Shown piece by piece: positions 3,001 through 6,000 of a DNA stretch of 10,350 bases (position 1 is the stretch's first letter; every line of letters begins with the position of its first letter). The DNA lies in IMG/VR virus record IMGVR_UViG_2698536559_000019; one strand, written 5' to 3'. Source of the stretch: a virus (lineage: Duplodnaviria > Heunggongvirae > Uroviricota > Caudoviricetes). A program made the position numbers.

Positions 3001-6000
3001 TTTATGAGTGGATGCGCCAGAAAATTAATGCAGCGCAGGATCTGAAATGGGCCAATGAAGCCAGGGCTAAGCAGGCTGAAAATCTGTCCGCTCTGGAGCA
3101 GGATATCACCAATCTGGAAAAAGCAGCGGCATTAAGCATTGCCAGAATGATTACATACCCACGTTAATAGCTAACCAACGAGGCTAATAATGGAATTTAA
3201 AGATTTACCAAAAGAAATCCAGACAATTGCTGCAACGACTCTCGGTGATAGTCTGGTGAAAATTGACCCGGCATACACCAAAAAAGAAACCATCGATAAT
3301 ATGGTTCGTAATGTGCGCAATGCTTTTTCTGGGCTATATGGTTCTGATAATCAAAAGCAGGAAAGCGATGTTAATAAACGGGTAATTTCTGTTTGCGTGA
3401 ATGGCCATGTTCTTTCATCAATCAAAACAGAAACGGCGACAGTCTTCGATTGCCTTTGCATTGTACAGAGCCTTGTTGATGCCCTGTTTCGTTCAGTGAA
3501 TTTAGAAAATGATGCAAATCTGCGAGGGCGCACAATAGCACATCCATATGCACATACTTTAGGCTCTGTGGATATCAAAGATCCCACAAATCTTTAATGA
3601 AATAGTTAACGCGAATTGTACTTGCTCTTTCAGTTGCTTTCAGAATACGCGTTGAAACTGCTGGCGGTAATTTGGTATTCCATTTATTAAAATCATGCCC
3701 GGGAAAGTACTCTTCGAAAATACTTTTAACTGCAGACTCGCCTATTGAAATGCTGCTTACCATGCGATTTTGATAAAGGCATTTAGCAATAAGAGTTGAT
3801 TTTAACATTCACCCTCCTGAGGGTTGGTAATTAAGGAGTTCTCCACGGGTGAAGTGGAGTGCGTGCGCCGGACACGGGTGAACATCCGGCACTGACAGTT
3901 TACTGAAAGGATATTTCTCTGAAAAGTCAGAGCATAACGCGAAAGCGCGCGGCGGTAAGTATGGCGGGGTTATTCCTTCCCCGTTGAGGACACCGGGTTG
4001 TCAGGTTGACCATACGCTTAAGTGACAACTCCGCTGCAACGCCCTCTGTTATCAATTTTCTGGTGACTTTTGGCGGTATCAGTTCTACTCCGTGACTGCT
4101 CTGCCGCCCTTTTTAAAGTGAATTTTGTGATGTGGTGAATGCGGCTAAGCGCACGCGGAACAGTTAAAACCAAAAACAGTGTTATGGGTGGATTCTCTGT
4201 ATCCGGCGTTAATTGTTAACTGGTTAACGTCACCTGGAGGCACCAGGCACCGCATCACAAAATTCATTGTTGAGGACGCGATAATGGAAACGTTATTACC
4301 AAACGTTAATACGTCTGAAGGTTGTTTTGAAATTGGTGTCACTATCAGTAACCCTGTATTTACTGAAGATGCCATTAACAAGAGAAAACACGAACGGGAG
4401 TTATTAAATAAAATATGCATTCTTTCAATGCTGGCCCGTTTACGTCCGACACAAAAAGGATGCTGGCAATGAATACAGCATTTGCACTTGTTCTGACAGT
4501 TTTTCTTGTTTCCGGAGAACCAGTTGATATTGCAGTCAGTGTTCACAGGACAATGCAGGAGTGTGTGACTGCAGCAACCGAACAGAAAATTCCCGGTAAC
4601 TGTTACCCGGTCGATAAAGTTATTCACCTGGATAATAACGAAATCCCGGCAGGTCTTTAAAACAGTTCCGTAATAAACATCCGATTTCATTCTTATATGC
4701 CAGCAATGGCAGGGATTTGTTCACCCTTAAATCTGTAATGAGGTAAAACAAAATGAGTAAAGTCTTTATTTGCGCCGCCATTCCGGACGAACAGGCAATA
4801 AAGGAAGAAGGTGCAGTCGCTGTAGCTACTGCCATTGAAGCCGGTGATGAACGTCGCGCCCGCGCAAAATTTCACTGGCAATTCCTGGAACATTATCCGG
4901 CTGCTCAGGACTGCGCTTATAAATTTCTTGTCTGCGAGGATAAACCCGGTATACCCCGCCCTGCCCTCGATTCCTGGGATGCTGAATATATGCAGGAAAA
5001 CCGCTGGGATGAGGCGTCTGCTTCCTTTGTCCCGGTTGAGACTGAATCAGATCCGATGAACGTCACTTTTGACAAGCTGGCCCCTGAAGTACAGAACGCT
5101 GTCATGGTTAAGTTCGACACATGTGAAAACATCACCGTTGATATGGTGATTAGTGCGCAGGAACTGTTGCAGGAAGACATGGCAACATTCGACGGACATA
5201 TCGTTGAAGCGTTGATGAAAATGCCAGAAGTTAACGCCATGTATCCGGAGCTTAAGCTGCATGCCATCAGGTGGGTTAAGCATAAATGTAAGCCTGGTGC
5301 CAAATGGCCCGAAATTCAGGCAGAGATGCGCATCTGGAAAAAACGTCGCGAAGGTGAACGCAAGGAAACCGGAAAATACACGTCTGTTGTTGATCTCGCC
5401 CGCGCCAGAGCCAATCAACAGTACACTGAAAATTCAACAAGAAAAATCAGCCCGGTCATTGCTGCCATTCATCGCGAATACAAGCAGACATGGAAAACAC
5501 TGGATGACGAACTGGCCTACGCTCTCTGGCCTGGTGATGTGGATGCCGGAAACATTGACGGCAGCATCCATCGCTGGGCAAAAAATGAAGTTATCGACAA
5601 CGACCGCGAAGACTGGAAGCGTATCTCGGCATCAATACGCAAACAGCCTGATGCCCTTCGCTACGACCGCCAGACTATTTTTGGCCTTGTCCGTGAACGT
5701 CCGATCGACATTCACAAAGACCCTGTGGCACTGAACAAATACATTACTGAATACCTGACTACAAAGGGCGTGTTTGAAGATGAAGGAACAAATCAGAGCG
5801 CAACTGATACTCTCTCATCGCCAGTACCAGAAACTGATGCAGTGGAAACGGCAATTCCGGACAACGAAAAAACCGAATGCAAAGTGGAAATCGAACCATC
5901 TGTAGAGCGTGAGGGGCCGTTCTACTTCCTCTTCACCGACAAGGATGGCGAAAAATACGGTCGCGCAAACAAACTTTCTGGTCTGAATAAGGCGCTGACT

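Follow-up and report, generated by a model that had tools for sequence, protein, structure and literature searches.

The window considered here, a stretch of 10,350 nucleotides (nt) from the IMG/VR virus record IMGVR_UViG_2698536559_000019 (Caudoviricetes), is the early-left region of a Qin/Rac-like lambdoid prophage, and the region of it that was tested is identical to O157:H7 genomes. Our subject is a pair of small adjacent hairpins at 3841-3890 and the short gene that begins next to them on the minus strand. YdaS/Cro-like and YdaT-like genes occupy 540-1264 on the minus strand, and the plus-strand genes run from the immunity region towards the integrase: ydfC (2949-3167), a gene for 135 amino acids (aa; 3190-3597), dicB (Pfam DicB), a DUF1482/ydfD-like gene, a RecE-type exonuclease gene (4753-7233), and the genes for Xis and Int. 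The only gene opposed to them at this site encodes 77 aa (3575-3808, minus strand; PHROG 10348, of unknown function; WP_000920491.1 in relatives). Its start lies 33 nt from the first hairpin, the hairpins being upstream of it as described, and its 3′ end overlaps that of the 135-aa gene convergently by 23 nt (3575-3597).

The hairpins stand in a gap, 3809-4283, that constitutes the long untranslated region (UTR) of the dicBF operon (PMC5069750), and in K-12 the plus strand is transcribed across the hairpin region as part of the dicBF mRNA (PMC10448788). A preliminary description of this DNA took the gap to lack any convincing open reading frame (ORF), which holds as far as proteins are concerned; the gap is nonetheless not featureless, for it contains DicF. 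The DicF small RNA (sRNA), at 4058-4109 on the plus strand (Rfam RF00039, 71.5 bits against a gathering score of 48), is separate from the hairpin element, which ends at 3890 and hence does not overlap the covariance-model match.

Both features on which attention first fell, two adjacent inverted repeats with 6-bp stems and a direct repeat shared between them, are present in the sequence. Hairpin 1, called hairpin B in what follows, spans 3841-3859 (arms 3841-3846 and 3854-3859, CTCCAC/GTGGAG, with a 7-nt loop) and reads CUCCAC-UUCACCC-GUGGAG on the minus strand; hairpin 2, or hairpin A, spans 3867-3890 (arms 3867-3872 and 3885-3890, GCCGGA/TCCGGC, with a 12-nt loop), its minus-strand form being GCCGGA-UGUUCACCCGUG-UCCGGC. 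On the plus strand the repeat CACGGGTGAA occupies 3844-3853, where it takes up the loop of hairpin 1 and 3 stem bases, and again 3873-3882, in the loop of hairpin 2, the 2 copies lying 29 bp apart from start to start, as had been noted. What had been overlooked is a third, inverted copy of the motif, TTCACCC at 3808-3814, which on the minus strand reads GGGUGAA and runs from the Shine-Dalgarno (SD) sequence into the AUG of the 77-aa gene. The pair of repeats is not significant within the window alone, 18 of 200 shuffles containing at least 2 matches with at most 1 mismatch; it is because of its conservation, and not because of repeat statistics, that the hairpin block is held to exceed chance. 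Of 5426 complete E. coli genomes, 3558 carry the block, and a single genome may have as many as 7 of them; it recurs in K-12 Qin, where 3890 of the window corresponds to about 1,647,154 in U00096.2 and about 1,649,130 in U00096.3, and in diverged phages. When genome contigs were scanned with GCCGGACACGG..TCCGGC, E. albertii was recovered; the remaining hits were chance matches in GC-rich genomes, the pattern being too unspecific.

No terminator-like site was found on either strand between 3700 and 4300, and no T run follows either hairpin. The hairpins might form a free-standing small RNA, as had been suggested, but against it stand the missing terminator and the lack of an Rfam match. Rfam has no family matching them at E≤1 for the whole window or at E≤10 for the 191-nt stretch 3770-3960, the scans returning DicF, a sub-threshold STnc100-like match, and a meaningless snoRNA match. 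A plus-strand mini-ORF of 10 codons (SD AAGGAG at 3833-3838, GTG at 3849, TGA at 3879-3881) starts in the first repeat copy and ends in the second. It was rejected as a conserved coding unit because the K-12 version loses the stop and extends to 40 codons, and it is probably a by-product of the anti-SD described below.

The preliminary description had also entertained a nut-like element. A nut-like or put-like processive antitermination site on the early-left transcript has in its favor that, as in lambda, small stem-loops, here 2 and adjacent, occur in the early operon of a lambdoid prophage, in constant orientation to that operon. However, no boxA (CGCTCTTWA-like) exists on either strand of the whole window with up to 1 mismatch, and the stems of 6 bp with loops of 7 nt (GGGUGAA) and 12 nt differ from boxB, with its 5-bp stem and 5-nt GNRA-like loop, and are much smaller than HK022 put. 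The position is wrong as well, some 2 kb from the early promoter and immunity region and past several genes. Moreover, the hairpins are present both in phages with N, as in phiSTEC1589, where they lie downstream of N although nutL should precede it, and in phages that lack N; the window itself yielded no N gene. There is no Rfam match, and the strand with the best support, as discussed below, is opposite to the early operon. We regard an antitermination site as hardly credible.

A more productive perspective comes from comparing copies. About 270 copies from IMG/VR and GenBank phages were collected by exact-pattern scans and oriented, and all counts that follow are among the matches listed. 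What stays constant as the context changes is a unit on the minus strand, in the order hairpin A, hairpin B, leader, and AUG; leader-anchored scans that left both free gave the stem of hairpin A and its flank, TGCGCC..CACGG, as near-invariant. The unit is followed on the minus strand by small ORFs of 57-99 aa, at least 14 of them mutually unrelated, which begin 55-66 nt from hairpin A and are each preceded by a strong SD; they fall mostly into separate PHROG families with no assigned function, with at least 8 such families behind a single leader. The cassette is always antisense to the flanking early genes. Its cargo proteins are mostly hydrophilic and diverse, and searches against Pfam, NCBIfam, and PHROG yielded no function and no match to a toxin family. 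The 94-aa cargo of locus L094 has a weak match to GhoS (Pfam PF11080, 21.2 bits, barely at threshold) and another, far below the cut-off, to the YmfI family of the e14 prophage (NCBIfam); these matches are the only functional hint among the cargo proteins.

Some contexts have the cassette and no DicF UTR at all: phiP27, STEC367, a second copy in phiSTEC1589, and the loci L079, L262, and L295. Phage phiSTEC1589-Stx1c carries 2 cassettes of different type, at L006:2480-2570 and L457:1216-1306, one adjoining kil and the other beside DUF977/YdaW genes, and from these 2 sites it follows that the cassette moves independently of the DicF region. Cargo can be lost. Copies of the K-12 and EE72d types have no such ORF behind the hairpins, and in the EE72d type the loss is accompanied by decay of the leader, hairpin B falling to about -1 kcal/mol. 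In the Stx phages of O104:H4, the ribosome-binding site (RBS) and the N-terminal half of the cargo have been deleted, so that only the C-terminal half is left. One such remnant, at L458:1200-1400 (P13374 and other O104:H4 Stx2a phages), retains a -10 box, hairpin A, and a hairpin-B-like segment, and its cargo belongs to a family of 96-99-aa proteins in L457 and L122.

The upstream edge of the unit is equally regular. In the window a predicted -10 box, TAAACT (3897-3902, minus strand), lies 6 nt before hairpin A, and a weak predicted -35 box, TTTTCA (3920-3925), matching at 4 of 6 positions, stands behind a 17-nt spacer; the combination has 8 of 12 consensus positions and was missed by a consensus scanner, for which the -35 box is below threshold. 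In each of 7 upstream contexts that are unrelated to one another, a hexamer resembling a -10 box, with A as its second base and T as its sixth (TAAACT, TAAATT, TAAGCT, GATAAT, TATTAT, TAACAT, or TAAAAT) ends 5-6 nt before hairpin A, a positional coincidence with P of about 5e-7 to 6e-9. A TGn extension accompanies the hexamer in 3 of the 7 contexts, and in one the promoter is complete, TTGAGA-17-GATAAT. Given this positional -10 box, a minus-strand transcript is therefore predicted to begin at hairpin A. A third, imperfect hairpin, a 40-bp palindrome at 3892-3931 (CUGAC..GGAUAU(N)UCC..GUCAG; as DNA, CTGAC..GGATAT(N)TCC..GTCAG), is conserved in most copies with its central base free to be T, A, G, or C. 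It overlaps the predicted minus-strand -35 and -10 boxes and falls at the same time within the UTR of the plus-strand dicBF mRNA, so that it may serve either as an operator or as RNA structure on the plus strand.

Within the leader the sequence following the hairpins is arranged around the start of the 77-aa gene. An anti-SD, CUCCU (3834-3838), pairs with the AGGAG of the SD, AGGAGG (3813-3818, read from the sequence), which is paired in both the minimum free energy and the centroid structure. The SD-AUG spacer GGGUGAA (3808-3814), whose last A is the A of the AUG, is complementary to both hairpin loops. Two types of leader, with different sequences and the same architecture, account for this arrangement among the copies. 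Type A, the type of the window, has hairpin B as CUCCAC/GUGGAG, the anti-SD CUCCU, the SD AGGAGG, and the spacer GGUGA; type B has hairpin B as CCACACG/CGUGU(U)GG, the anti-SD (U)CUCCAUU, the SD AAUGGAGGA, and the spacer AUAA. Loop and RBS types were paired by leader-only anchored scans blind to hairpin A. Type A leaders always have the loop UCACCC with the RBS GGGUGA, and type B leaders the loop UUAUCC (UUACCC in a few) with the RBS GGAUAA, so that in each type the loop complements the SD-AUG spacer; crossed combinations number 0 among 179 cargo-bearing copies. The 7-nt loop-spacer match has a P of about 0.002-0.003 for shuffled or random loops, and the 6-7-nt loop/RBS match a P of 0.002-0.04 per type, in the same register in both.

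The covariation analysis that had been proposed bears this out. When 55 distinct leaders were aligned, pairing reached 96.7% in the loop-spacer helix, which contains 2 compensatory pairs, and 100% in the anti-SD/SD helix, which contains 1 (U-A against A-U at 28:27); the figure for slid controls was 38-50%. RNAalifold independently recovers hairpin A and the anti-SD/SD helix. Hairpin B shows one fully compensated change (CACG/CGUG to CAUG/CAUG), and in other leader types its sequence is replaced and a hairpin still results (CCACACG..CGUGU(U)GG; CCACA..UGUGG). The idea that the repeated stem-loops are an RNA element and not random sequence survives in the sense of a conserved, structured element of the riboregulator kind; its nut-like version does not. 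Nothing points to a protein-binding site, and base pairing with the ribosome-binding region of the neighboring gene is a better account of the shared motif.

These patterns also bear on a possible role of the hairpins as DNA: a recombination sequence at a module boundary, a REP-like palindrome, or sites for a DNA-binding protein on the repeated motif. Mosaic breakpoints do adjoin an invariant TGCGCCGGACACGG block, types A and B differing on one side of it and sharing the other, and the direct repeats have mediated a deletion. In locus L349 (IMG/VR contig 2585427789_000011) exactly the 29 bp between the CACGGGTGAA repeats have been lost, joining the 5′ arm of hairpin 1 to the loop of hairpin 2, from which it follows that the direct repeat can mediate deletion. 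However, a recombination boundary needs no compensatory changes, no strand-biased G·U pairs, no fixed -10 distance, and no complementarity to an RBS. A type-specific DNA-binding protein should be encoded nearby, but the cargo proteins are mutually unrelated. As for REP, hairpin 2 has a loose resemblance to REP (GCCGGATG...TCCGGC); a REP element was rejected, the likeness being confined to GCCGGATG..TCCGGC, with the REP tetranucleotide and the REP length both absent on reading the sequence. A DNA-level role is, in our view, very unlikely.

The question then becomes which strand the structures serve. Folding of both strands, another of the proposed checks, pointed in one direction: judged against shuffles, the minus-sense RNA is the more stably folded strand in each of 7 leaders, with z scores of -1.3 to -3.8 against +0.5 to -2.6. 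The folding energies of hairpin B alone do not discriminate the strands. Its non-Watson-Crick cells lean to the minus strand, 10 of them being G·U pairs there against 1 on the plus strand. In the predicted folds, the SD is paired either with the anti-SD or in a local CCCU/AGGG mini-hairpin, and in one of them (L007) the loop of hairpin B replaces that of hairpin A in pairing with the spacer.

From the opposite perspective, the hairpins might be structural modules at the 5′ edge of the ydfC-dicF UTR of the dicBF mRNA (for example, decay barriers, folding insulators, or processing determinants that aid the DicF and dicB RNA), with an incidental link to the minus-strand gene. Such a plus-strand role, which we think unlikely, draws on the fact that both hairpins are intact in the cargo-less K-12 Qin and in thousands of similar loci, and on the conservation of hairpin A and the third hairpin where hairpin B and the leader have decayed. 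The uneven distribution of G·U between the strands, both in the loop-spacer helix and at the pair closing hairpin A, leans the same way. However, the hairpins occur with cargo in the phages and loci listed above that are devoid of the DicF UTR, plus-sense folds are mostly no better than shuffles, and published processing sites lie well downstream of the hairpins. Moreover, it leaves unexplained the positional -10, the fixed distance to the minus-strand AUG, the covariation of SD and anti-SD, and the 10:1 G·U bias in hairpin B.

The interpretation that we prefer, and hold with moderate confidence, is that the twin hairpins are the promoter-proximal 5′ leader, its first 50 nt, of a minus-strand mRNA, keeping down translation of a moron that lies in reverse orientation. 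Transcription would start at or next to 3890, the first base of hairpin A, from a sigma-70 promoter (-10 at 3902-3897, weak -35 at 3925-3920), and the transcript would then present, in order, hairpin A, hairpin B, the anti-SD CUCCU, a short loop, the SD AGGAGG, and the AUG of the 77-aa gene. The leader would be the constant part of a mobile moron cassette whose variable part is one of many unrelated small genes, set within the early-left (dicBF-type) operon of Qin/Rac-like lambdoid prophages and pointing against it. The RBS would be shut in 2 ways, the SD pairing with the anti-SD or in the local CCCU/AGGG mini-hairpin, and the spacer GGGUGA(A) pairing with the hairpin A loop UCACCC and, in type A, also with the loop of hairpin B. 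With the RBS closed twice, translation of the cargo would stay low as long as the 5′ hairpins are in place and closed. By analogy with what is known of 5′-terminal stem-loops, hairpin A probably stabilizes the mRNA, shielding it from 5′-end-dependent decay. The comparison itself shows the architecture of the sequence, its conservation, the compensatory changes, and the position of the -10 box; the point where transcription starts, pairing in vivo, repression as the direction of the effect, and whatever relieves it belong to the proposal.

Several observations weigh against this interpretation. The -35 box is weak, and the literature consulted offered no data on transcripts, start sites, or translation. 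Directly after the cargo gene, near 3575, there is no terminator; the closest terminator-like hairpin with a T run on the minus strand, at 3144-3127, lies inside ydfC some 430 nt downstream. The plus-strand dicBF mRNA of K-12 forms, by symmetry, the same hairpins and the same long-range complementarity. The few non-Watson-Crick cells favor the plus strand, by 4:1 in the loop-spacer helix and by 6:1 at the closing pair of hairpin A, which is A·C on the minus strand in 6 leaders. In several cargo-bearing lineages, with the spacers GAGUGA, GGAUGA, and GGGGGA, the 6-bp loop-spacer helix has an internal mismatch. The covariation comes from 2 lineages and hence from few independent events, and the search for a third loop/RBS type gave single-base variants only, mostly at cargo-less loci; sampling by exact patterns is a further reservation. 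Finally, the abundant cargo-less K-12 type keeps both hairpins intact, which suggests either a second role or a recent loss of the cargo. In these K-12-type loci, a minus-strand RNA from the predicted promoter would stop at this terminator-like site in ydfC after about 135 nt, and such an RNA would be a candidate antisense sRNA to the 3′ end of ydfC.

This last case invites consideration of a sense/antisense kissing-loop module. Both transcripts, the minus-strand leader RNA and the convergent early-left RNA, would fold into the twin hairpins with perfectly complementary loops, which would speed duplex formation and cleavage by RNase III; in a lysogen the minus-strand RNA would silence leaky dicF-dicB read-through, and upon induction the early transcript would shut off the moron. 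Consistent with this, the cassette is always opposed to the surrounding early operon, and in cargo-less K-12-type loci the predicted minus-strand promoter and the hairpins persist ahead of the terminator-like site, where the RNA would be non-coding and antisense to the 3′ end of ydfC. The mixed G·U signals of the 2 strands agree with it as well, and the upstream part of the K-12 dicBF mRNA depends on RNase III (PMC10448788). On the other hand, the case is purely inferential, since any convergent transcripts are complementary and hairpins are not required; by itself it leaves the match of the loop to the RBS spacer unexplained; and no antisense RNA has been reported, with one small-RNA sequencing study listing none near 1,647,1xx in a search of limited power. 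As a description of the element, we find it distinctly unlikely, although it and the plus-strand role are both still serious competitors of the preferred interpretation. An extension of the translational-leader interpretation that combines 2 further ideas, excision of the 50-nt twin-hairpin segment as a c4-like trans-acting sRNA and an antisense RNA from cargo-less loci, we judge decidedly improbable. On that view the sRNA would act on all cassettes of its type (UCACCC on GGGUGA for A, UUAUCC on GGAUAA for B), co-resident prophages, at up to 7 copies per genome, would cross-regulate their accessory genes, and the K-12 Qin promoter would make an antisense RNA that damps leaky expression of the toxic dicF-dicB genes.

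Some features of the DicF side of the gap deserve mention in their own right. At 3938/3939 the window is missing 85 bp that are present in 5 of 5 relatives compared, including K-12 Qin; the missing segment would fall between CGCGAAAGC and GCGCGGCGG and has short CGCGAAA repeats at its flanks. Lying about 137 nt before the DicF 5′ end, it should, to judge by this distance, hold the published site of RNase III cleavage that makes the 190-nt DicF precursor. With this site presumably lost, DicF processing in the prophage of the window may differ from that in its relatives. The STnc100-like match noted above (37.7 bits against a gathering score of 47; 4107-4316, plus strand) runs from the terminator tail of DicF across the spacer that follows and into the start of dicB, outside the hairpins. 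A link to P1 immI by way of a “dicF-like region” was considered and dropped: the P1 region is in the ban leader and matches 3938-4033 of the window, not the hairpins.

Among known systems, the closest in logic may be sought in c4. The work of Citron and Schuster in 1990 is said to have described, in P1 and P7, a structured c4 RNA in the 5′ part of a transcript that is complementary to the RBS region of a downstream small ORF, the different specificities of the 2 phages reportedly arising from matched changes in RNA and target. As in c4-icd-ant, the loops here complement the SD-AUG spacer of a 57-99-aa ORF 55-66 nt downstream, in the matched types A and B, and the c4-type trait of a 6-7-nt loop-spacer complementarity in both types with no crossed combinations is found here computationally. 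Unlike the C4 family (P1 c4/P4 CI RNA, RF01695), the element had no Rfam match at the thresholds given above, and unlike P1 c4 it serves a variable cargo, not icd-ant, and has 1 target site instead of 2. Type I toxin mRNAs offer a second comparison. In these, by fold-back in hok or until the 5′ end is processed in tisB, zorO, and dinQ, the leader sequesters a ribosome-binding or standby site, and the toxin genes overlap an antisense transcript. Here too the SD and spacer are predicted to be paired to upstream segments of the leader, and the gene is antisense to the operon; however, the cargo proteins, of 57-99 aa and mostly hydrophilic, are not short hydrophobic peptides, and no dedicated antitoxin sRNA gene or promoter was identified.

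Like lambdoid morons, the 77-aa gene and its counterparts are reverse-oriented extra genes in a phage operon with a predicted promoter of their own and variable content at a fixed slot; unlike morons, many unrelated cargos share one conserved leader of about 85-95 nt, and no terminator directly follows the gene. The definition of a moron thus applies in part: the cargo varies, a promoter is inferred, and a terminator was not found. A stable hairpin at or within 1 base of the predicted 5′ end recalls the stabilizing stem-loop of the ompA 5′ UTR, although in the present case, where such stabilization is only a presumed function, the loop also matches the RBS, a feature for which stabilizers of the ompA type have no need. 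DicF and the dicBF UTR of Qin share the gap and the prophage family with the hairpins, which in K-12 lie about 250 nt upstream of DicF, but the hairpins are outside DicF and its 190-nt precursor and occur also in loci without DicF.

A literature search turned up no paper describing the hairpin element, and searching with the sequence itself gave nothing relevant; the control element thus appears to be undescribed so far. The widespread RNA leader is, in our view, real and apparently unannotated, and the mechanism proposed for it is plausible and testable, if unproven. If it is correct, some two-thirds of complete E. coli genomes, K-12 and O157:H7 included, carry an RNA control cassette that has no Rfam family, and the 2 matched loop/RBS types are a natural swap pair. 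A predicted convergent promoter would lie inside the well-studied dicBF operon, where the control of the toxic DicF and DicB is not fully explained. The leader would also provide a handle on a set of prophage small genes with no assigned function. That at least 8 PHROG families stand behind a single leader suggests that they share their conditions of expression, probably those of the lysogen, and this would make the cargo genes candidates for exclusion, defense, or host-modulating functions.

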